From assembly GCA_046483985.1 (NCBI GenBank), contig JAWOCD010000011.1, positions 1-64,000 of the forward strand: 64,000 nucleotides of DNA, given 5' to 3'. The stretch's first letter is position 1. The number at the start of each line of letters is the position of its first letter. The position numbers and the translations under genes are program-made. The notes beneath the pieces are model-generated. The model saw only the letters and a program-made list of their open reading frames with translations. It did no database searches and had not been told where the DNA came from. Origin of the DNA: Promethearchaeia archaeon (GTDB taxonomy: Archaea > Asgardarchaeota > Lokiarchaeia > Sigyniarchaeales > SOKP01). Below, one piece after another: positions 1 through 23,642 of this stretch.

Positions 1-338
1 CTTTAGATAAACATATATGGATATCTCCTTTTGATAATAATCCATGGAGATATATCAATCATTCTTGTGACCCGAATACCGGTTTAAAAGGGAAAACTAC
101 GGTTGTAGCAATGAAAGACATAAAAAAGGATGATCATATAACCATAGATTATTCTATAACAGAAGCTTCTCCGTATTGGAAAATGAAATGCGAATGCGGA
201 CAAAAAAACTGTAGGAAAATAATACGAAGTATAAGGTTTCTTCCTCCAAAATTGTTTAAAAAATACAAAGAATATATTCCAAAATTTTTAAAAGAACAAT
301 ATATGAAGGCAAACAAGTCCTTCAAATTACCTTCTTAG
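1..338 (+). CDS. SET-domain protein-lysine methyltransferase with post-SET motif (5' partial)
   Basis: Reading frame 3 from the window start gives ...PWRYINHSCDPN...ITIDY...CECGQKNCRK, i.e. the SET NHSCxPN and terminal xDY motifs plus post-SET CxCx4C. The ORF track starts it too late (111). Confidence 0.9.
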   Translation, partial: LDKHIWISPFDNNPWRYINHSCDPNTGLKGKTTVVAMKDIKKDDHITIDYSITEASPYWKMKCECGQKNCRKIIRSIRFLPPKLFKKYKEYIPKFLKEQYMKANKSFKLPS

Positions 339-373
339 ATTCAGCAGGATTTTGGATGGGGAAAATGTGAAAT

Positions 374-1369
374 TCACAAGAGTTTTAATTTTTGGAGAAG
401 TGCCGTTATTAAAATAGGAAGTGCTATTGTCGCATCACACCACACGCTTACATATTTCGAAGCTAAACTATACTTTCCCCAAGACTTTGATTCCGAAATG
501 GTACACCCCGAAAGGCCTCCATCAAGTTCGGTGGCTGTATGAATTCTCACTGAATAATCATATCCACGATTTTCAACATTTTTTAAATGCTCTAACAATG
601 GAAATATCTGTTGAGCCCAATTTCGGGGTACTCCACCACCTATAATAAAGGTTCCGCATTCCTCTGAATTGTTAATAATTTGTGCGAATTTTTTGAGATC
701 CTCAAACATATCGAATTTAAAGGAATATCCTTTATATTCTGAATAAATAGCCAAGTTTAATGCAAATTCAGAATCGGTAAAAGCTGGGACAAAAATGGGG
801 GTATTTCTCTCAGCAGCAACGGATAAAATGCATCGTTCCTTAATTTGAGTACCAATAATGGATAAAAACTCCGAGACGCACATTTCAATTTTCTTTTGAT
901 CGAAAGAATCTTGTATAATTTTAAGCAATACATCTTCGGTTAGATCATAATTATCTTCAGGTAAAAAAACATCGTAAATTCGATTAATTCGATAGTTAAA
1001 TAAATCTTCATCATCTACTTCCGCACTTCCTTGATAATGACCACCGTCGGCAACAGCATCGATTAAATCGTGGGAAATATTTGCTCCAGTAGAAATTATT
1101 ACATCGATTAAACCATGTTCCATTAAGACACATATAATTTCCCCCATTCCAGCAGGAACCATTGCTCCCGACAATGTTAATACAGTCAATATTTTTTCAT
1201 CAGAAACCATTTTATACAAAACATCCAAAGCCTTCCCTAAGTTCCCCCCTTGAAATCCGCAATTTTGTAAAGATTTTAATACATCAGCAACGTTTTTTAC
1301 CTTTTCCACATCAAATGGATCTATTTTTTTGCGCAAATATTTATGGTCATTTATCTTTTCTTTATTCAT
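374..1369 (-). CDS. dhs: Deoxyhypusine synthase family protein
   Basis: GFQGGNL, LSGAMVPAGMG, IIGGGVPRN, DGGLSG and ESKSWGK (catalytic Lys) motifs. Confidence 0.92.
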   Translation of the reverse strand: MNKEKINDHKYLRKKIDPFDVEKVKNVADVLKSLQNCGFQGGNLGKALDVLYKMVSDEKILTVLTLSGAMVPAGMGEIICVLMEHGLIDVIISTGANISHDLIDAVADGGHYQGSAEVDDEDLFNYRINRIYDVFLPEDNYDLTEDVLLKIIQDSFDQKKIEMCVSEFLSIIGTQIKERCILSVAAERNTPIFVPAFTDSEFALNLAIYSEYKGYSFKFDMFEDLKKFAQIINNSEECGTFIIGGGVPRNWAQQIFPLLEHLKNVENRGYDYSVRIHTATELDGGLSGCTISESKSWGKYSLASKYVSVWCDATIALPILITALLQKLKLL

Positions 1370-1543
1370 TTTTTTAAGGATTAAAATTAATTTTTTTTTA
1401 TTTAATAAAGATATAGTCTCGGTCCATATTATGTGTAATCATTATAGGTCTCCTTTTAATTAATCCAATAACTCTTGAAAACAAATAGTCAAGTGTTTAA
1501 ACATCCAAATAATATTAAATTATCTTTTATTTTTATTGTTAAT

Positions 1544-2092
1544 ATGTCATTAGTCCCCAAAAAAGTTTTTTTTGTAAAAGGGAAGGGATTTCATAAGTCA
1601 AAATTAGGATCTTTTGAAGATGCTTTAAGGGATGCTGGTATTGAGCGGTTTAACTTAGTAAAAGTCTCTTCTATACTTCCCCCGCATTGTATTGAAATAG
1701 ATAAGGAGGGGGGTTTACAAGAATTAAAGACTGGACAAATTGTCTATACTGTCTTAAGTAAGGCTAGTTCTAATGAGTTTAGTCGATTAGTGACCGCTTC
1801 GATAGGAGTTGCAAAACCCTCAGATAAAGAAAATCATGGATATCTAAGCGAGCATCATTCTTTTGGGAGGAAACCAAAAGATGTGGGAGAATTTGCTGAA
1901 GATTTAGCTGCCGAAATGTTGGCAACTACTTTAGGGGTACCATTTGACCCAGAAGCAAATTATGACTATAATAAAGAAATCTTTAAAATGAATGGAAAGA
2001 TTGTGGAGACTAAAAGCATCACAGAATCTGCAACAGTACGCAAGGATAAGGAATGGTTAACAATTCTCGCTGCGGCCATATTTGTTCTCTAA
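1544..2092 (+). CDS. pdaD: Pyruvoyl-dependent arginine decarboxylase
   Basis: SFEDALRDAGI, NLVKVSSILPP (Ser-Ser self-cleavage site), GYLSEH. Likely start is ATG 1544 (MSLVPKK). Confidence 0.9.
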   Translation: MSLVPKKVFFVKGKGFHKSKLGSFEDALRDAGIERFNLVKVSSILPPHCIEIDKEGGLQELKTGQIVYTVLSKASSNEFSRLVTASIGVAKPSDKENHGYLSEHHSFGRKPKDVGEFAEDLAAEMLATTLGVPFDPEANYDYNKEIFKMNGKIVETKSITESATVRKDKEWLTILAAAIFVL

Positions 2093-2135: not shown

Positions 2136-2726
2136 TTATTCATTATATTCTGTAATAAGCGGCTTATCTTGAAAATAGTTTTCGATAAATGTTTGAAAAT
2201 TGTGCACTATCATATTTGGGTCTTCTATTTTTTCAATCTCCCATGGAATTTTTCGATAATCAGACATCATATTGTAATATTCTTCGCCCCTCAACCGAAA
2301 CACCGAAAATCCATACTCTTCGGGTTCAAGATATTGTGGAGGGCTGAAAATTAATCCGATGAATTTGGAATTAAAGTTTTGAAATTGGATATGGTTTTTA
2401 ATATCTCTGGCACTAAAGCGTATCTTGTCATTCGTAGAGCGATACCAGCCGATGACCTCATTTATGGAATTGATCTCTAACTGCTGCTTGTTGATTTGTC
2501 CTATTTTAGCCATAAATTCGTCATCCATCTCAATGTTCCGGTTTTGGGTGTGCGTAAAGGGTATGGCATCTTCCACATGGCGTGTATCCTCTTCTAAGTA
2601 CCCCAATAAGAGTCCGATGACCATCTCATTGTCCGAAGAGTTGTTAGAGACCCAAAATCGAAATGTATGCAAGGCAATTTTCATGAAAGCTGACGGCTTT
2701 ATTTTGATCAGTCCTTCTTCAGGCAT
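2136..2726 (-). CDS. MPN/JAB-domain protein, catalytically inactive (MPN-)
   Basis: IKIKPSAFMKIALH, VIGLLLG, VIGWYRST, FSARD match the MPN fold, but the HxH zinc ligands are absent. Confidence 0.8.
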   Translation of the reverse strand: MPEEGLIKIKPSAFMKIALHTFRFWVSNNSSDNEMVIGLLLGYLEEDTRHVEDAIPFTHTQNRNIEMDDEFMAKIGQINKQQLEINSINEVIGWYRSTNDKIRFSARDIKNHIQFQNFNSKFIGLIFSPPQYLEPEEYGFSVFRLRGEEYYNMMSDYRKIPWEIEKIEDPNMIVHNFQTFIENYFQDKPLITEYNE

Positions 2727-3353
2727 TTACTCATCCTCCTGATCTTCTTCTATCCCTTCTATTAGGGGTTCATCATGATCTCTTTTATCTTCCATTTCAA
2801 TGCCGAGATTAATAATATCTTCAATATATATGTTTTTTGAAAATGTAAAGGGGAGTTCCGTTAATTCTGTAGTGACATTTACGGATTTATAATCTTCTTG
2901 AAATTCATGGATCTTTATGCCATAGTCGATGGTGAGATCACCAAAATTAAAAATCCAGAAAAAGGAATTTTTATGTATTGCTTGAAAGAAGATATGATTC
3001 TTCTTATCAATAAGGGTGGTTTCTCTGGTATCATCAATCGAATTACGTGCCCATCCCACTATATAGGAGGGAAATTCCTCATCATCGTATTTCAGATTCA
3101 ATTTTTTAATTTTTTTAATTAGTCGGTGTTTCTCTTTAAAGATAATATGTTGCTTCTTAAATTGCTTATAGGGGATAAAATCTTCAATTACCGTTATTCC
3201 ATCTATGTCCGTGTAGCCTAACAGTAGACCATAGGCCATCTTAAATTGATTTTCATCGATAAATTTGGATGAAAAGCGCTGAAAATACATAAGACTCTTA
3301 ATATAGGCAAGTGGAGACAGAGAAAGGGTCGATTGAGGGGTTTCTTCCATCAT
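2727..3353 (-). CDS. MPN/JAB-domain protein, catalytically inactive (MPN-)
   Basis: LSLSPLAYIKSL, AYGLLLG, IVGWARNS, TLIDKKNH. Paralogous to the adjacent gene; no HxH. Confidence 0.72.
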   Translation of the reverse strand: MMEETPQSTLSLSPLAYIKSLMYFQRFSSKFIDENQFKMAYGLLLGYTDIDGITVIEDFIPYKQFKKQHIIFKEKHRLIKKIKKLNLKYDDEEFPSYIVGWARNSIDDTRETTLIDKKNHIFFQAIHKNSFFWIFNFGDLTIDYGIKIHEFQEDYKSVNVTTELTELPFTFSKNIYIEDIINLGIEMEDKRDHDEPLIEGIEEDQEDE

Positions 3354-3422
3354 ATTTTACAATTTTCCCAAAATTACCTTTAACATCTATGTAATAAAAA
3401 AATGAATTAAAATAAGAATAAA

Positions 3423-4223
3423 TTATTTCTCTTCTCCAGCATGGGGCAGTTTCTCACCGCAATATGGACAGTAATTCCAGCCTAAGTCTTTTCCACAATA
3501 GGGACAAAAGACAGATGTTCCCGCAGGTGTTAAAGCAGCTTTTTCCCCTTCTTCTGCTTTAGCTTCGGGTTTTTTCTCCTCTTCTGTCTTAGGTTTGGAT
3601 TCTTTCGGTTGTTTTTTCGGTCCAGGTTTTTCCGTTTCTTTACCCGAGGGTATAGATGGTAATTCTCTTGAAGTCTTCGCGGTAGGGGTTTTTTCGGCTT
3701 CTTCAGCCTTTGGGGGTTTTTCGGTCTTTTCCCCTCCTTCTTCCGCTTCCCCCGCTTTTGCTTTTTTAGCTTTCATCCTTTCACGGAATGCTTGTCTCTT
3801 CTCTTCTTCACTTTTTACCGATTCGGGCGCCTCTTTGTCCTTAACCCATCCTTGTGCTTTAGGTCTTTTCAATTCTTTTTCTGGAACTTTTTCGAGTTCA
3901 ACGTCCTTTGTTTCAGAAAGTGGCGCTTTTACTTTACGCTCCTCTTTATTCCTTTTTGCTTGCTTTACTAAAGCAGAAGTTGTTTTCATTATCTGATGCG
4001 GATTAATGTTGGGAATTGCAACGGTTTTAATTACCCAGCCAACAATCCTATTTTGATTTGGGAATTCTCCTTCTACGTCTTTATAGACATAACTATCAAT
4101 CACATTTTTTCCTTTTAAAATTCGAGATGCCCATTGATCATTAATAAGCCCTACTTGAAGTCTGTATGACGTCCCAGCAATGCCAAGTTGACTTGTTAAT
4201 GGTTCAAATCCTTTTTCAGTCAC
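3423..4223 (-). CDS. Hypothetical protein: globular N-terminus, charged low-complexity linker, C-terminal double zinc ribbon
   Basis: C-terminal CPYCG..YCPYCG; K/E/P-rich middle; co-oriented with the two MPN- genes. Confidence 0.75.
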   Translation of the reverse strand: MTEKGFEPLTSQLGIAGTSYRLQVGLINDQWASRILKGKNVIDSYVYKDVEGEFPNQNRIVGWVIKTVAIPNINPHQIMKTTSALVKQAKRNKEERKVKAPLSETKDVELEKVPEKELKRPKAQGWVKDKEAPESVKSEEEKRQAFRERMKAKKAKAGEAEEGGEKTEKPPKAEEAEKTPTAKTSRELPSIPSGKETEKPGPKKQPKESKPKTEEEKKPEAKAEEGEKAALTPAGTSVFCPYCGKDLGWNYCPYCGEKLPHAGEEK

Positions 4224-4447
4224 ATTTTTTCACTTATACATTATTTTCTTAAATTTAATGGAAAGCTTTAAAATCCTTAATATTAATTAGATTTTCCACT
4301 TAATTAAGTTTTTCTTAAGCATAATATGGCAATTGAAGATCGTTAAATTAAAATTAAATTAAAATTAAAAACTATTATTTTAATTATTTATTAAACAGAA
4401 TTAAATAGAATTAAAGTTTTTAGGAATACATAATAAGATGACCTTTT

Positions 4448-5398
4448 ATGACTGTTATTATACCAAATAAAGTATATAAGACTATTATCGCTGCGGCAAC
4501 TCGATTTGCTAATCAGAGATTTCCCAAAGCCGATTGGCTGGAGGTAAGCGGAATCTTTATCGGAAAAAACGAAGATGAAAATGTAAAGATTTCTGCTGCC
4601 CATCCAATTATGCATCAAGAGTATGAAGAAGAGGCTGTTATTGATAAATACATGTGGGATGATCAAGATATGATTATCACCTCGGAGCTTGAAGCAAAAG
4701 CCTACGAAAATGGGGAATTTATCGTTGGATGGTGGCACAGTCATCCGGGATTTAAGGTCATGATGAGTCACATAGACATTCGCACCACCTTATCGTATCA
4801 ACAAAATAATCCACAGGCAATTTCGCTTGTATTTAATCCGGAACGCTTGATAAGACAAGTGGAACTTCCCTCCCGAAAAGGTGACCCCGAAAAGCAACTA
4901 AAGAATGACCCTGGATTTAAAATATTTCGCTTGGATGATGTAGAAAGAGGGATCGAGGCATCCTATCATACAGTGGAGTATGAAATCTTGGGATATGACA
5001 CTCTAGAGCAAGCGGTTACCCAAGCTCAGAAATTCGTGGTAGAGGTAACGAACTTTTTTCCCCAGAATGACATATTTACCACTTATAAAAATTTCGTTGA
5101 TAAACGGGTTAAGGAATTAAATTCAAAATTGGTGGGCACAAAAGAATATCTCAAAACCTTAAAGAGAAAGGGCGAGGCGGATAGAATGTCCGAGGTACTG
5201 CAGACTCAAAAAAAAGAGATTCAGAAATATGTAGCCGAGACCTATATTAAAATCGAGAACATAAAGGAATTTATGAATTATTTGGAATATAAGGAAAAAC
5301 AGACTGTTATCCCAAAGGTAAAGGAAATTTTATCCAAATGGGATGAATCCATTACTGATTTAAATAATCGGCTGCAAAAATTGGAAAAAATTAAATGA
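4448..5398 (+). CDS. JAMM/MPN+ metalloprotease (Rpn11/CSN5-like) with C-terminal helical extension
   Basis: LEVSGIFIG (catalytic Glu) and IVGWWHSHPGFKVMMSHID (HxHx7Sx2D); ~120 aa amphipathic helical tail. Confidence 0.9.
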   Translation: MTVIIPNKVYKTIIAAATRFANQRFPKADWLEVSGIFIGKNEDENVKISAAHPIMHQEYEEEAVIDKYMWDDQDMIITSELEAKAYENGEFIVGWWHSHPGFKVMMSHIDIRTTLSYQQNNPQAISLVFNPERLIRQVELPSRKGDPEKQLKNDPGFKIFRLDDVERGIEASYHTVEYEILGYDTLEQAVTQAQKFVVEVTNFFPQNDIFTTYKNFVDKRVKELNSKLVGTKEYLKTLKRKGEADRMSEVLQTQKKEIQKYVAETYIKIENIKEFMNYLEYKEKQTVIPKVKEILSKWDESITDLNNRLQKLEKIK

Positions 5399-5550: not shown

Positions 5551-7758
5551 ATGAAAAAAATTAACTTTCCGTTCACGGCAATTATGGGACAGCCCAAGAT
5601 GAAATTAGCTTTAATTTTAAATGTGATAGACCCTCAAATTGGAGGGGTATTACTGACCGGGCATCAAGGCACCGGTAAATCAACGGCGGTGCGTTCCTTA
5701 GTGGATGTCATGCCCGAAATTGAAGTGGTAAAAGGATGTGAATTTTCATGCGACCCGAATTCTGATATGGAAGATCTGTGTCAGAGTTGTCAGAAAAAGA
5801 GGGAAAAAGGGCAGATGGAAACCTTTACTCGGAAAATGAGAATAATCAACTTGCCCTTGGGAGTCACTGAAGATATGGTATGTGGAAGTCTGTCAATCGA
5901 TAAAGTTCTTTCTGAAGGAATCAGAGATTTACATCCCGGACTGTTGGCAAAAGCAAATCGAGGAATTTTATATGTAGATGAGATTAACTTGTTACAAGAC
6001 CATATCGTCGATGTTTTATTAGATGCTGCTGCATCGGGTGTAAATATTATCGAAAGAGAAGGGATCTCTGTAATGCATCCGTCCAAATTTATTCTGGTTG
6101 GCTCTATGAACCCCGAAGAGGGTGAACTACGACCACAAATTGCCGATAGATTGGGGTTAGAGGTGAAGATCAAGGCGCCCACCAATCCAAAAACACGCGC
6201 AGAAATCACCAGACGCGTAATAGAATTTGATGATAATCCCAAGGAATTTATCAAACAGTATGAGGAAAAGCAAAAGGAGTTACAGGGGAAAATTTTAAAC
6301 GCTCGAAACAATGTAAAGGATGTCAAAATTCCGGCACATATTTATCAATTAGTTTCAAAAATTGTAAATGATTTAGAGATTTTCTCTCAACGAGCGGATA
6401 TCACTTATGTTCGTTGTGCGCGAGCAAATGCAGCATTTAATGACAGAAAAGTGGTAAATAAAGATGATCTTAATATCGCAATGGGTTTAGTCTTTGAACA
6501 CCGGATTCAATCACTTCACTATGAAATGACGCCGAAGGAAATCGAAGCAAAAATTAAGGATGTGTTCGGGAAAATCAAAGAAGCATATGAAGATACAGAT
6601 ATCTATAAACCGAATAAGGAAAATGAAGGCCCCTTAAAACACTCTGATGAACCCCAATCAGAATTTAAAAGGCAGCCCATTGATCCCGAAAAGGTTGAAA
6701 TCCCAGAATCTAAAGAGCAAAAATTACCGCCACCTTTAGAAAAGGACGAAAAAAAACGTAAGGCCACCCCCGCTGGAGGATGGAAAGTAAAAGACATTCC
6801 TATAGACGATGATTTGGAGTTAGAAAATTATGAATATGATGAAAGTGAAATGATGCCGTTCATCTATGAAATGGAAAAAAAGATGACAAAAATCCTAGAT
6901 AATATCAGATCTCAAAGGAAAATTTCGAATTACGGTGGGCGAGGAATTGGTAGAAGGATTAAATTAGCGTCCACTCAGAAGGGAAGATATATCTCTTATC
7001 GAAAACCAATGCGAAATCCGAAGAGCATTGCATTGGACGCAACTTTGAGAACATATCTCAAAAACTTGACCTATAACAAGACGGATTTAGAGTTTCCGAT
7101 TCGATTTAACAAGTATGATATCCAAGAAAAGATCTATCAATACCGCGCTCCGCTTTCCCTTTTTTTTGTCTTGGATAGTTCCGCATCGATGTACTATGTA
7201 ATAAAACAGATGACCGATGTAATTTTGGCACTGCAAAAGGAAGGATATCGAAAACGGGATAAAATTTCGCTTATTGTATTCCGAGGGAAAAAAGCAGTTG
7301 TACTTCAGAAGCCCACCGTTTATTATAAACAAGCGATCTCTAAATTACAAGATCTAGAGGGAAAGTCATATACGCCTATGGCAGCAGCACTGAATAAATG
7401 TCATCGGCTGATTAAAACGGAACGGTTAAAAGATCGTAATATTGTCCCCGTTATTTTTATTCTTTCTGATTGCGGGGCGAATATTTCAGTGAAACATCCT
7501 GATCTGATCGCTCAGATAGAATCAGATTATACTTTAATAGTGAATGAACTGGAAGAAATTACAAAAAAACTAATGAAACAAGATATAAATCTGATAGTAC
7601 TGGAGCCGAAAAAATCTTTTGCAACTCAAGCCTTGGGAGTACATCCATACTCGGCTAATAAGATCAAAGAAAACTTCCAAAAGCACGGAGGAAAAGTATA
7701 CAAGTTTGATAAATATAGTACCTCCGATTTGCTTTTGAAGTTAAGAAAGATCTTATAA
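5551..7758 (+). CDS. ChlI/ChlD-like (Mg-chelatase family) AAA+ ATPase fused to a vWA domain
   Basis: [18 protein letters not shown] (Walker A), LYVDEINLL (Walker B), [13 protein letters not shown]; C-terminal FVLDSSASM (MIDAS) and TPMAAAL. Confidence 0.9.
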
Positions 7759-7824: not shown

Positions 7825-9081
7825 ATGCATTCTGTATTAGTTGTAGGATTTAATGTTCGTCCTTTGGCATATTCTTTACATACAGCAGGGTATAAAGTAT
7901 ATGCAGTGGATTTTTTTGGAGATCTGGACCTATTTCCCTATGTGGAAGAAGCAAAAATTATTTTGGATGAATTAGGGACACAATATAAACTAATGAAAGA
8001 CATTTATCCAGAATATCTTGCACATTTTGCAATTGATATGCTTAACAAATATGATAATATTGACTATCTGCTTATAGGGAGCGGACTTGATGATGCCTTT
8101 GAAGAGCGTCAAATGATCCAAGACTATATAACTGAAAGTGGTTATAACCTACGGTCTTTAAATAATGAAATAAATCTTTTAAAGAAAGCAAGGGATATCT
8201 TCTATGTTTATAACATTTTATCGGAAAAAGGCTTTAAATTTCCTAAAACTTTTATCTTTGATGAAAATTTGGTCCATTCCTCAATCGATTTTCCTTTTAT
8301 TCTTAAACGGGCTGAAAGCTCGGGCGGAATAAGTATATTGAAATGTGAAAACAAGGATGACCTAGATACCTTTCTTAAAATGCAGCATGCAAAAAACATA
8401 AGTCCTAACGATTATTTAATTCAAGAATATATTGAAGGGATTGATGTAAGTTGTACCACAATTTCGGATGGCAAACAAAATCATGTTATTTCCATTAATA
8501 AACAAATTTTGGGAGAGAAGTTTCTTAACGCCCCTAAAGATTTTATCTATTGCGGAAATGTCGTCCCAGCCAATATATTACAAAAAGATCGTGATAAAAT
8601 AAGGCGGATTTCTCAATTTTTAACTTCCGAGTTAGGTTTAAAGGGGATCATCGGATTTGATTATGTTTTACATAAACACGAGGCTTTTCTGATGGAGATC
8701 AATCCCCGCATCCCTGGTTCCATATGGGCCTCCGAAAAGGCTCTAGATCTCAATTTATTAGATCTCCATGTCAAATGTTATGCAAAAAAAAGTCATTGGC
8801 CTTTCATCCGTAAAAAATTAAAGAAAAAATCTACTAATTGTTTTGCTACTAAACTAATCTTCTTTGCCCCCCAAACTATTAAACCAAAAATCATAAGAAG
8901 TGTTAATGACCTCCCATATGTGCACGATAAAACGCCTCCTAAAAATAAAATTCTGAAAGGAGACCCTATATGCACCATCATGCATACGGGCAATAAATTT
9001 GCGGAGTCTTATTTTGCTGCTTTAAAAAAAGCCGAGAACATAAACAGGATTATAAAAGAAAAGTATAACCTTAGCGATTGA
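7825..9081 (+). CDS. ATP-grasp domain ligase (COG2232-like)
   Basis: RPLAYS..AVDFFGDLD N-terminus; FPFILK..SSGG, IQEYIEG, GFDY..LMEINPR. Confidence 0.85.
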   Translation: MHSVLVVGFNVRPLAYSLHTAGYKVYAVDFFGDLDLFPYVEEAKIILDELGTQYKLMKDIYPEYLAHFAIDMLNKYDNIDYLLIGSGLDDAFEERQMIQDYITESGYNLRSLNNEINLLKKARDIFYVYNILSEKGFKFPKTFIFDENLVHSSIDFPFILKRAESSGGISILKCENKDDLDTFLKMQHAKNISPNDYLIQEYIEGIDVSCTTISDGKQNHVISINKQILGEKFLNAPKDFIYCGNVVPANILQKDRDKIRRISQFLTSELGLKGIIGFDYVLHKHEAFLMEINPRIPGSIWASEKALDLNLLDLHVKCYAKKSHWPFIRKKLKKKSTNCFATKLIFFAPQTIKPKIIRSVNDLPYVHDKTPPKNKILKGDPICTIMHTGNKFAESYFAALKKAENINRIIKEKYNLSD

Positions 9082-9808
9082 TAATCGATTTAATCTTCAC
9101 AAGATAAGAACCTAATTTCGACTCATCTGCCTCTGGAACCGCTACACATAAGATCCTGTTTTCATCAAGCTCATGAATGATTATCGAGCCTATTTCTCCG
9201 GCAATAATTGAATATTCAAAATCTTTAATTAATACATTTGATAAATCAAAGACTGCAGATATCATCGCCGAAATTGTCGGTTCTGGCATGGTGGCTTGTA
9301 TCTTTATGGGCAAGCCCTCTTTGGTAATGATGGCTATAAGAAGTGCATTGGGGATGGAACGCTTTATGCCGACAAAGAGTTCTTCTTTTGCAAGTTCGGA
9401 GGTTTCAATAATGGCGGAAATATGAAGCGCCAAGTCTCTAAGTTTTTTAATTGATTCATTCAATCCCTCCAGATCCGCTAATTCACGATCGAGGTAGGCA
9501 ACCATGGTGATATCCTCAGTCAAAATGGATATCAGAATGTATTTTTTCCCAGTCACTAAATTATAGGACACCTCTTGATTTAATGTCCCTTTAAGCATTT
9601 TCGATGCAAGGAAAATTAAACTACTGGTTGCCGATGCTATTTTAACTTCTGAAAGGAATTCATCCTTTTTCTTAAAGGCACTCGTCACCGGCGTGCCCGT
9701 CAAGCTTCCAACATTAATTCCAATAAGCGAAGGATTCTTTTCCAGTTGATCTTCTATCAATTGCGTTATATCTGACTCTAAATCTTCCATATTCTTTTGT
9801 TTTGACAT
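9071..9808 (-). CDS. Tandem Roadblock/LC7-domain protein
   Basis: Two ~110-aa repeats with the Roadblock pattern (GSLTGTPV..KIASATSSL; IITKEGLPI..TISAMISAV). Confidence 0.75.
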   Translation of the reverse strand: MSKQKNMEDLESDITQLIEDQLEKNPSLIGINVGSLTGTPVTSAFKKKDEFLSEVKIASATSSLIFLASKMLKGTLNQEVSYNLVTGKKYILISILTEDITMVAYLDRELADLEGLNESIKKLRDLALHISAIIETSELAKEELFVGIKRSIPNALLIAIITKEGLPIKIQATMPEPTISAMISAVFDLSNVLIKDFEYSIIAGEIGSIIIHELDENRILCVAVPEADESKLGSYLVKIKSIINR

Positions 9809-22162: not shown

Positions 22163-22657
22163 TTAGTCAGGATGCTCGATATGTTTGTCCCATATCGCCA
22201 GGTTTTTCTTACCGCCCATGCTAAAGGAATCATAGAGATCGGTAAAAAGATTCTCTTCTTCCATTTGCTCGTCGATAAACCAATTTAATAGGTCATATGC
22301 ATAGTACTCCTCTTTCTGTTTAGCCAAATCCATAAGATTTTCAATTGTACTGGAAATGTGCTCTTCGTGACTGATGGCTTCTTTTAATACTTGTTCCACA
22401 TTTTCATAATCGGTAGAGACCTTTTCAATTGTTCCATACTCTACTTTTCCACCAGCTTCTACGATATAGTCAACAAATTTCATTGCATGTTCATATTCTT
22501 CTTTTTCCGCATGGATTCGTAAAAATCTCGCTAATCCTTTAAGCCCTTGGGATTCTGCCCACGCCGCCATTCCTAAATAAATATATCCTGACCTAAGTTC
22601 TTCTACAATTTGATTATTCATTAAGTCATTCATTTCCTTGGAAATAAAATTAACCAT
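22163..22657 (-). CDS. ftn: Ferritin
   Basis: E..SGYIYLGMA, EEYEHAMK, HEEHI, WFIDEQMEEE ferroxidase pattern. Confidence 0.92.
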   Translation of the reverse strand: MVNFISKEMNDLMNNQIVEELRSGYIYLGMAAWAESQGLKGLARFLRIHAEKEEYEHAMKFVDYIVEAGGKVEYGTIEKVSTDYENVEQVLKEAISHEEHISSTIENLMDLAKQKEEYYAYDLLNWFIDEQMEEENLFTDLYDSFSMGGKKNLAIWDKHIEHPD

Positions 22658-22823
22658 TTTTATCCACCTACTATCTTTTTGATTTATCGAATTAAAAAGA
22701 CTTTATATTATAATTTATAAAAATCAATGGGAGATATGGTAGATAAAAAATTTGGAGATCAGACTATTATATCTATGGGAATCTTATCGGTATGAATATA
22801 TTAATTTGTTCTTTCGCAGATCG

Positions 22824-23642
22824 TTAATAACTAAAAAACTTTTTAATCTCCCTATTGCGGTGTTTTATATCACTTTCCCTGACAAATTCGTGGTCCATAT
22901 CTTCAATTAAATAGGTAGAGGGTTGCTTATTGGATTGCTGAAAAATCTCATCAATCTCTTCAGGCGGAGTGAGCTTGTCCTCCTTACCAGCAATTATCTT
23001 TAGTTCATTCAATTTAAGCTTACTCACGATGATGCGAATTTGATATTTCTCGTTTTCAAGCTCTTCCCTCGTCATTTCAATAAATTGCTCCTCATCATCT
23101 ATCCCCTTTACATTACCAGGCACAAATTTATTTAAATACCGTAGTCCTGCTTCAAAATCTTTATGGTTTATATGTCTTTTTAAATCCAAGATAGGAGAAA
23201 TTAGGAGGACCTTGTTAAAAAATTCAATTTGAGAGCATACAATCAATCCAATAAAGGCTCCGAAATCGTGCGCGATGAGATGAATCTCGGATAGGTCAAA
23301 TATTCCTTTTTCCGCCATTTTTTCGATAAATTCTCTGATTTTCATAGCATCCTTCACTTGGGAAGTAATGGAAACAGATCCTTCACTGATTCTATAGCCA
23401 CGAAAGTCAAACACTAAAAATGCATATCCCATATCCAGTAAGGGCTGATGTTTCTTTACAATTTCTTGTAATGGATCTAGTTGAGGAAATCCATGAAAAA
23501 ATGTTACCAAAGGATAGGGTTTGTTGACGTATTGTGGTGGGAAATATAATACTCCCCTTAGAAGCTCTCCGTCAATCTTAATCTGGATCTCGGAAACTTC
23601 ATAAGGTCCATCAAATTGTCTCTCTCTATCTTCAAATTCCAT
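22824..23642 (-). CDS. Alpha/beta hydrolase with an Asp at the nucleophile elbow
   Basis: FFHGFP, FDFRG...SEG, IAHDFGA, GKEDKL, MDH. Confidence 0.8.
   Translation of the reverse strand: MEFEDRERQFDGPYEVSEIQIKIDGELLRGVLYFPPQYVNKPYPLVTFFHGFPQLDPLQEIVKKHQPLLDMGYAFLVFDFRGYRISEGSVSITSQVKDAMKIREFIEKMAEKGIFDLSEIHLIAHDFGAFIGLIVCSQIEFFNKVLLISPILDLKRHINHKDFEAGLRYLNKFVPGNVKGIDDEEQFIEMTREELENEKYQIRIIVSKLKLNELKIIAGKEDKLTPPEEIDEIFQQSNKQPSTYLIEDMDHEFVRESDIKHRNREIKKFFSY

Follow-up and report, generated by a model that had tools for sequence, protein, structure and literature searches.

A conserved pair of dead MPN proteins encoded in a Lokiarchaeial gene cluster with active MPN enzymes

Eukaryotes characteristically combine an active MPN/JAMM isopeptidase with a dead paralogue, as is seen in the proteasome lid, the COP9 signalosome (CSN), eIF3 and BRISC. 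In the lid, the CSN and BRISC, the subunits that lack an active site (MPN-) pair with the active enzymes (MPN+). Here we describe two adjacent genes, m1 and m2, that encode dead MPN proteins next to active MPN genes in a Promethearchaeia archaeon of the class Lokiarchaeia (order Sigyniarchaeales; GenBank assembly GCA_046483985.1). The stretch analyzed, hereafter the window, comprises the first 64,000 nucleotides of contig JAWOCD010000011.1. An initial annotation, made from the letters of the window alone, had proposed that one active and two dead MPN genes share a divergent locus here, in the manner of the eukaryotic heterodimers. All three open reading frames (2136-2726, 2727-3353 and 4448-5398) are present. 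The features of the locus are the following:

2136 to 2726, minus strand: m1 (P0001), 196 residues, a tail-less dead MPN-domain protein, second gene of the abutting pair.
2727 to 3353, minus strand: m2 (P0002), 208 residues, a dead MPN paralogue of m1 and the leading gene of the pair.
2718 to 2745, minus strand: the m2/m1 junction, ...caggaggatgagTAAATGcct; stop then start, with a Shine-Dalgarno-like AGGAGG within the end of m2.
3423 to 4223, minus strand: ZNR (P0003), a zinc-ribbon protein of 266 residues, first leftward gene from the spacer.
4224 to 4447, no strand: an AT-rich divergent spacer of 224 bp between ZNR and the 316-residue MPN+ gene.
4448 to 5398, plus strand: MPN320 (P0004), 316 residues, an MPN+ protein of the JAMM metalloprotease type with a conserved C-terminal tail of ~130 residues.

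The absence of any gap between the two dead MPN genes can be read directly from the sequence, where the TAA stop codon of m2 abuts the ATG of m1 and AGGAGG lies just 5'. The divergent spacer reported at ~220 bp also exists, but its leftward neighbor is ZNR, which the initial annotation had overlooked, and not an MPN gene. ZNR and m2 are separated by 69 nt.

We assessed the fold of the two short proteins. m1 matches the Pfam family JAB (PF01398) with 43.1 bits (E 4e-11; cut-off 22.5). m2 has no direct match in the Pfam scan, and the profile of its family finds none among PDB sequences; its fold was therefore established by profile-profile comparison and by a structural model. m2 shares 28% identity with m1 (BLASTP, E 1e-6), and the profiles of the two families align end to end (hhalign probability 99.2, E 9e-20, 198 columns). 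The AlphaFold2 (AF2) model of m2 (pLDDT 81, pTM 0.80) matches the MPN domains of BRCC36, Rpn11, CSN6, eIF3h, Rpn8 and CsRpn11, the Rpn11-like protein of Caldiarchaeum (Foldseek probability 1.00, E 5e-10 to 1e-7). BRCC36 is its top structural match, and helices are predicted at both the N and the C terminus of m2. The MPN scaffold is readily recognized as VIGLLLGY ... VIGWYRSTND in m1 and as AYGLLLGY ... IVGWARNSID in m2. The active site is not: MVIG in m1 and MAYG in m2 replace EVxG, while WYRST and WARNS, respectively, replace WYHSH. The catalytic glutamate and both histidines are gone in all members of the m1 and m2 families, which keep the aspartate alone, and neither protein matches the JAMM motif E-x(n)-H-x-H-x(7)-S-x(2)-D. 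The Pfam match, the hhalign comparison, the AF2 model searched with Foldseek and the alignments all agree that m1 and m2 preserve the MPN fold and have lost the zinc ligands, as eukaryotic MPN- subunits have. The initial annotation had made this claim while allowing that the small proteins might not be MPN folds; both are. A Pfam scan with E up to 1 detected no MitMem_reg in m1 or m2. Both proteins end at a KP(L/I)IxE motif, at the point where the long MPN proteins described below run on into their tails; m1 shares the terminal motif KPLIxExNE with one of these, MPN475.

Three of the m2 orthologues (P0036, P0039 and P0051) carry an extra C-terminal tail that ends in LLGVKLG, LLGVKFG or LVGLKLG. 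No natural fusion of m2 and m1 was found among the best 150 of 218 matches in 1.84 billion representatives. A separate protein of the representative library, P0174 (1398 residues), holds two tandem MPN stretches, at about 28-171 and 210-333, in a single chain.

Both families appear to be restricted in distribution and well conserved. The homologues in the m1 cluster (n = 24) are all named Promethearchaeia or Promethearchaeota, and those of m2 likewise, that is, Lokiarchaeia. Peptide patterns derived from m1 and searched in one genome per species gave 66 pattern matches, none of which was confirmed. The total loss of the catalytic residues, save the aspartate, and the absence of the two genes from most genomes of the order could indicate that m1 and m2 are decaying, functionless remnants of duplicated MPN genes. 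Several observations make this extremely improbable. Reading frames are intact in at least 20 distinct cluster representatives for m1, and in as many for m2. Column identity averages 69% in m1 and 57% in m2, with 41 and 22 invariant columns, respectively. In the comparison with a relative whose m1 is 80% identical, the dN of m1 (0.110) is no higher than that of the active paralogues: it equals that of MPN320 (0.111) to within a thousandth, and MPN475 and MPN465 both have higher values, with dS saturated. The dN/dS of m2 is about 0.05, and the genes are conserved in two families. As far as sequence conservation can tell, m1 and m2 are under purifying selection and are working genes.

The active enzyme of the window is equally well defined. 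MPN320 has a complete JAMM motif, composed of E32, H97-S-H99, seven residues, S107, two residues and D110, within GWWHSHPGF. None of E32, H97, H99, S107 and D110 varies across the nine orthologues compared. The full motif that had been noticed at 4448-5398 is accompanied by a Pfam JAB match of 52.1 bits (E 7e-14; cut-off 22.5), and the best PDB relatives are CsRpn11 (6fjv, E 1e-8), Rpn11, CSN5 and BRCC36. Several genomes have an MPN320 gene that is broken at one and the same place into open reading frames of ~110 and ~214 residues, often with a single TAA. Examples are found in locus L001 (5453-6457) and in about ten genomes of genus g11 (e.g. G177, G208, G214 and G225). Possible explanations are a recurring split, a frameshift and recoding.

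To place the window among its relatives, fetched loci were annotated with hidden Markov models (HMMs) built from these loci, and a whole-genome HMM search was run over 400 Asgard genomes. Four metagenomic loci (L001, L003, L004 and L075, the last with the 80% identical m1) share one layout: a Roadblock-like gene, an ATP-grasp gene, an AAA-VWA gene and MPN320 on one side, divergent from ZNR, m2, m1, two genes for long-tailed MPN proteins (MPN475 and MPN465) and a TPR gene on the other. The order ZNR, m2, m1, MPN475, MPN465 recurs in genome G150, whose contig starts at ZNR and does not cover the MPN320 side. The five-MPN order is thus found in five relatives. The divergent arrangement of ZNR and MPN320 is present in the same four metagenomic loci and in genera g12 and g13. 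Genus g12 has the full cluster without m1 and m2, and genus g2 has only ZNR, MPN475 and MPN465. Wherever m2 and m1 occur (10 of 10 loci), m2 precedes m1 and the two are adjacent, 0-40 nt apart. The linkage of m1 and m2 to active MPN genes, for which the initial annotation had suggested a synteny check across Asgard genomes, is conserved across relatives. That annotation counted one active and two dead MPN genes, which is true of this contig, but the conserved cluster has three active ones.

The most consistent neighbors of m1 and m2 are ZNR and the two long-tailed MPN+ genes, all on the same strand; the divergent MPN320 is less so. In a second family, f3, genome G133 has m2, m1, MPN475 and MPN465 in a row and carries MPN320 and a ZNR-like gene on a separate contig; across f3 MPN320 lies on contigs other than those of m1 and m2. 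The linkage of the dead pair to MPN320 is therefore kept in the window and in four metagenomic relatives, but not in f3.

In the genome studied here, the orthologues of MPN475 and MPN465 are found at the start of another contig, C39 (1793-3331 and 3334-4737; 512 and 467 residues), followed by the same TPR gene and gene of ~1050 residues that follow the long MPN pair in relatives. C39 opens with a 74-bp repeat that also occurs on five further contigs. An insertion or a rearrangement has therefore interrupted the five-MPN cluster in this genome. Beyond m1, the window continues with genes for an arginine decarboxylase and a deoxyhypusine synthase and with a SET fragment; the polyamine/hypusine gene pair in this left end (window 3-2092) occupies the place of the long MPN genes of the relatives.

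The whole-genome search returned m1 orthologues in 6 of the 400 genomes: the one studied here, G148 and G150, all of family f1, and G133, G134 and G144 of f3. MPN320 orthologues are found in 123 of 134 genomes of f1 and in 12 of 14 of f3, about 90% across the order. Since MPN320 is this common and m1 and m2 this rare, MPN320 normally works without them. The cluster itself is widespread in the order, with the dead pair as an optional addition.

Dead MPN proteins have arisen in this cluster along a second route. In the relatives that bear m1 and m2, both MPN475 and MPN465 have complete JAMM motifs followed by helical tails of 250-300 residues. The active site of MPN475 is intact everywhere examined, and the best solved match of its family profile is CsRpn11 (61 bits). 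MPN465 is instead inactivated in g6 (where the motif reads ISH), in most of g12 (HSR), in G231 of g12 (glutamate to glutamine) and in g13, with LSH in G275 and, in G276, loss of the GW motif and glutamate replaced by aspartate. The loci with a dead MPN465 (L046-L063, L071, L073, L088 and L089, from genera g6, g12 and g13) are all without m1 and m2. Of the 149 representatives (at 50% identity) retrieved with the m1 profile, 44 lack the pattern H-x-H ... S/T-x-x-D; at least 12 of them, beyond the loci just named, belong to the MPN465 family and have RSH, LSH, ISH, CSH, SSH or HSR. MPN465 is intact in 10 of 10 loci with m1 and m2, and dead only where these are absent. As the lineages are related, this either/or relation is to be read as a pattern and not as a statistic.

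To trace the origin of the dead pair, we built a tree of 63 MPN domains, all non-eukaryotic, with SH-aLRT support. m1 and m2 group together in a single long-stemmed clade (SH-aLRT 99), and each of the two subclades has members of both families. This implies a single catalytic loss followed by a tandem duplication that predates the split of the families; the loss of the glutamate and the histidines and the loss of the tail, being common to m1 and m2, are therefore older than the duplication. The m1 profile aligns with the N-domain of MPN475 up to the last residues (hhalign E 8e-27, score 172), more strongly than with MPN320 (E 8e-16, score 108). Its scores reach 75-104 bits with the long MPN+ genes of Lokiarchaeia; with solved structures they are 35 bits with CSN5, 34 with BRCC36, 27 with CsRpn11, 25 with Rpn8 and 24 with eIF3h, with CSN6 unlisted. 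By these profile scores, m1 is not closer to Rpn8 or eIF3h than to MPN+ proteins. m1 and m2 probably descend from a long-tailed Lokiarchaeial MPN+ gene like their present neighbors. They appear to nest within the Lokiarchaeial MPN+ radiation, so that their resemblance to eukaryotic MPN- subunits is likely to be convergence, and they are unlikely to be ancestral to those subunits. The link to the ancestry of the eukaryotic complexes that the initial annotation had considered possible is not supported: the nearest kin are the neighboring Lokiarchaeial long MPN+ genes, with no special affinity to Rpn8, CSN6 or eIF3f/h.

These data bear on the initial proposal as a whole, in which MPN320 is the specific partner of m1 and m2 and the trio is related by descent to Rpn11/Rpn8, CSN5/CSN6 or eIF3f/h. 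The divergent arrangement over a shared spacer, in the window and in the four metagenomic relatives, speaks for it, as does the finding that the three proteins have their best solved-structure matches in eukaryotic MPN proteins (next to CsRpn11 in the case of MPN320). However, MPN320 is far more widespread than the dead pair and lies on separate contigs in f3, m1 is nearer to the MPN475 family, and the m1 profile ranks CSN5 and BRCC36 over Rpn8 and eIF3h, all of them far under the Lokiarchaeial MPN+ proteins. Furthermore, a genome-wide search for PCI domains (PF01399), which accompany MPN subunits in the lid and in eIF3, returned no match on the contig of the window, in line with what had been noted for the window itself, and none adjacent to an MPN gene elsewhere in the genome. 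We consider this version improbable.

The remaining features around the locus are the following:

3 to 338, plus strand: SET-domain fragment, at the left end of the window.
374 to 1369, minus strand: deoxyhypusine synthase, at the left end of the window.
1475 to 2092, plus strand: pyruvoyl-dependent arginine decarboxylase, at the left end of the window.
5551 to 7758, plus strand: AAA+ (ChlI-type)/VWA fusion (P0006), 735 residues, constant neighbor downstream of MPN320.
7825 to 9081, plus strand: ATP-grasp ligase-type protein, 418 residues, conserved next gene in the rightward unit.
9071 to 9808, minus strand: Roadblock/LC7-like protein, 245 residues, conserved convergent neighbor.

ZNR is composed of a conserved N-domain of ~100 residues, a K/E-rich linker and a C-terminal CxxC...CxxC zinc ribbon (Zn_ribbon_3, E 7e-5). 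The disordered linker keeps the motifs LEKVPExELKRPKxxGWVKE, EEKRxAFxER and R(E/K)LPxIP across genera, which is typical of docking sites for several partners. The ZNR gene lies upstream of the MPN genes in every locus of the window's family that is covered there, metagenomic relatives included. The exception is the m2-m1 locus of G133 (f3), where no ZNR is seen; in that genome a ZNR-like gene (154 bits, without the C-terminal zinc ribbon) adjoins MPN320. In the Atlas, ZNR forms a cluster of 89 members, all archaeal, with Promethearchaeota the commonest phylum among the 30 for which it is known; its N-domain finds only its own archaeal cluster there. The AF2 model of this domain (pLDDT 77) is a beta-meander with two helices. 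A Foldseek search of the PDB gave nothing at E <= 0.001, and the best hit of the VIA wide search (Z 6.9) is to a designed protein.

The rightward unit is conserved as well. P0006 has the Pfam domains Mg_chelatase, AAA_lid_2 and VWA_2; it scores 584 bits with TIGR02442 ('putative cobaltochelatase'), under the cut-off of 779, and 339 bits with BchD-ChlD, under the cut-off of 499.6. The AAA-VWA gene adjoins MPN320 also in f3 (L078) and in G148 (L076). The 418-residue protein matches Pfam ATP-grasp_3 with 99 bits and no NCBIfam equivalog above its cut-off, and the 245-residue protein matches Robl_LC7 with 25.1 bits. The Roadblock-like gene occupies the same position in L001, L003, L004, L071, L073 and L075.

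The genome encodes 12 MPN genes in total, ten of them with the JAMM motif. Its ubiquitin/E2/JAB operon is found on contig C99, with a separate JAB gene of 267 residues, and genes for ubiquitin-like proteins lie on C99, C70 and C18. In prokaryotic operons of the ubiquitin-like protein (Ubl)-E1-JAB type (SAMP/ThiS/MoaD or Caldiarchaeum type), a JAB gene adjoins genes for a ubiquitin-like protein and an E1 or E2; searches for ubiquitin and E2 genes found no such arrangement at the locus of the window. A gene of 91-93 residues in the relatives was considered as a ubiquitin-like tag and rejected: by eye its product is not ubiquitin-like and lacks a C-terminal Gly-Gly. Three further loci of this genome were noted during the PCI and MPN searches. 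On C59, a protein of 797 residues (L021:409-2802, minus strand) combines PCI-like winged helices (85 bits) with matches to E3_UFM1_ligase (68), DDRGK (47) and the VPS28 C-terminal domain (26), and looks like a putative scaffold of the UFL1/DDRGK1 type fused to an ESCRT-I-like end. On C66, a protein of 491 residues (L023:1471-2946, minus strand) has a C-terminal PCI match of 26.6 bits (cut-off 22) and no PDB sequence match; neither this gene nor the one on C59 is linked to MPN genes. On C97, a 193-residue MPN protein (22475-23056, minus strand) has an unusual motif spacing, GWWHSHFIGHTFSGVD, and an open reading frame of 988 residues with a weak PCI-like match lies 2.3 kb from its gene, with two unrelated genes between.

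Taken together, we give an even chance to the reading in which m1 and m2 belong, as subunits without catalytic activity, to an isopeptidase assembly of several MPN proteins. m2 and m1 would be translationally coupled and made together. In the ancestral arrangement they would be co-transcribed with the ZNR adaptor and with MPN475 and MPN465, both active and long-tailed (about 475 and 465 residues), while the opposite unit would supply the third active MPN protein (316 residues), the ChlI-type AAA+/VWA protein and the ATP-grasp ligase. m1 and m2 may contact each other, the active paralogues, or both, via MPN-MPN interfaces formed by the N-terminal helix and by the C-terminal helix that ends in the shared KP(L/I)IxE. 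There they might position, stabilize or gate isopeptidase activity, like Rpn8, CSN6 and Abraxas, with a ubiquitin-like or peptide tag on proteins as the probable substrate. Co-folding of m2 and m1 with full-length P0004 as partner, with alignments, gave ipSAE values of 0.05 and 0.00 (mark 0.32), which count neither for nor against binding.

Five observations weigh against this reading. First, the m2-m1 pair of G134 is isolated, with the nearest other gene of the cluster 20 kb away. Second, m1 and m2 are split from MPN475 and MPN465 in the genome studied here; in both cases tight physical coupling is dispensable. Third, in the genus g2 genomes without m1 and m2 all three MPN genes are active, so a dead subunit is not obligatory. 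Fourth, searches for ubiquitin (PF00240) and UQ_con (PF00179), E1 (ThiF) not being searched, found none on the contig of the window, which bears on the substrate. Fifth, the sister group of m1 and m2 in the tree, made up of long MPN+ genes from different families of the same class, is weakly resolved (SH-aLRT 88).

The first two of these observations fit a different model, in which m1 and m2 form a self-contained heterodimer of two dead proteins that serves as a binding or scaffold module, for instance as a receptor of a Ubl tag or of ZNR motifs, and does not touch the active MPN proteins, comparable to eIF3f/eIF3h or to the MPN domain of Prp8. m2 and m1 never occur apart, they are coupled in translation, and their products have lost the tail of the active paralogues. 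However, most loci put m1 and m2 in an operon-like row with active MPN genes, and the restriction of dead MPN465 to loci without m1 and m2 suggests one shared role in one assembly. We regard the self-contained module as rather unlikely. A further possibility is that m1 and m2 are antagonists, decoys that displace the active partner from MPN-MPN dimers or sequester tagged substrate and would thereby turn the isopeptidases off instead of assisting them. Proteins that keep the MPN core and the N- and C-terminal helices, that have lost the catalytic residues and the tail, and that are optional and patchily distributed could act in this way. Stable co-transcription with the supposed targets over two families is nevertheless better explained by a constitutive subunit, and we consider an antagonist role improbable.

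The reading of m1 and m2 as subunits can be extended to the whole cluster. The five MPN proteins (three active and two dead), ZNR and the ChlI-type AAA+/VWA protein could constitute one ATP-driven deconjugation machine, for which the ATP-grasp ligase may write the tag. Such a machine would resemble the lid or BRISC, would have evolved independently of them, and would have its dead role filled either by m1 and m2 or by an inactivated MPN465. We consider this extension decidedly unlikely as it stands.

Conserved dead copies of MPN proteins have arisen at least twice in one gene cluster, as m1/m2 and through the repeated inactivation of MPN465. This argues that the design of an enzyme joined to a pseudo-enzyme is easily reached by the MPN fold and is not a unique eukaryotic invention. 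It also calls for caution in reading active/dead pairs of Asgard archaea, the archaea closest to eukaryotes, as ancestors of the eukaryotic complexes. m1 and m2 occur in few lineages, which limits the reach of these results. The cluster is a compact and testable system for the contribution of dead MPN proteins, and the occurrence of m1/m2 in some loci and of dead MPN465 in others constitutes a natural experiment.

The closest known designs are Rpn11-Rpn8 and CSN5-CSN6. The likeness lies in the MPN fold, in active and zinc-less paralogues that are encoded together, and in the conservation of the dead copies; helices that correspond to the N- and C-terminal ones of the Rpn8-Rpn11 helical bundle are predicted in m2. 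Unlike those pairs, the proteins described here have no PCI partners or MitMem_reg, number two dead and three active members, include dead copies without tails, and originated within Lokiarchaeia. BRCC36-Abraxas/KIAA0157, of BRISC and BRCA1-A, is similar in that BRCC36 is the top match of the m2 model and among the best of the m1 profile, and there, too, a dead MPN protein is found, as the required partner of an active MPN protein whose tail is helical. The coiled coil of Abraxas pairs with that of BRCC36, whereas m1 and m2 stop where the tails of the active paralogues start. The MPN475/MPN465 pair is a closer analogue of BRCC36-Abraxas than m1/m2. eIF3f and eIF3h are also two MPN- paralogues that act together, as m1 and m2 may do judging from their genes, but they belong to the PCI/MPN octamer of the translation machinery, whereas m1 and m2 have no linked PCI or translation genes and the eIF3h match is limited to 24 bits.

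Among archaeal proteins, CsRpn11 is a eukaryote-like JAMM enzyme and the best solved match of both MPN320 and the MPN475 profile. Its gene accompanies those for ubiquitin, E1, E2 and RING proteins, and the protein is a homodimer in crystals (PMC6043591). Unlike the proteins of the cluster, it has neither a dead partner nor a long tail, and the comparable JAB gene of the present genome sits on C99. Fuchs et al. wrote in 2018 that no MPN+/MPN- organisation was known from archaea (PMC6043591), and in the open-access literature we found no publications on Asgard MPN- proteins or on m1/m2 or MPN475/MPN465 pairs. Within the cluster itself, MPN475/MPN465 belong to the same superfamily as m1/m2, with a first gene that is always active and a second that is repeatedly inactivated. 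m1/m2 instead form a separate and older clade in which both proteins are dead, short and tail-less, and they occur only where MPN465 is intact. m1 and m2 constitute a new MPN pseudo-enzyme family of archaea, in which a known design is arranged in a new way.

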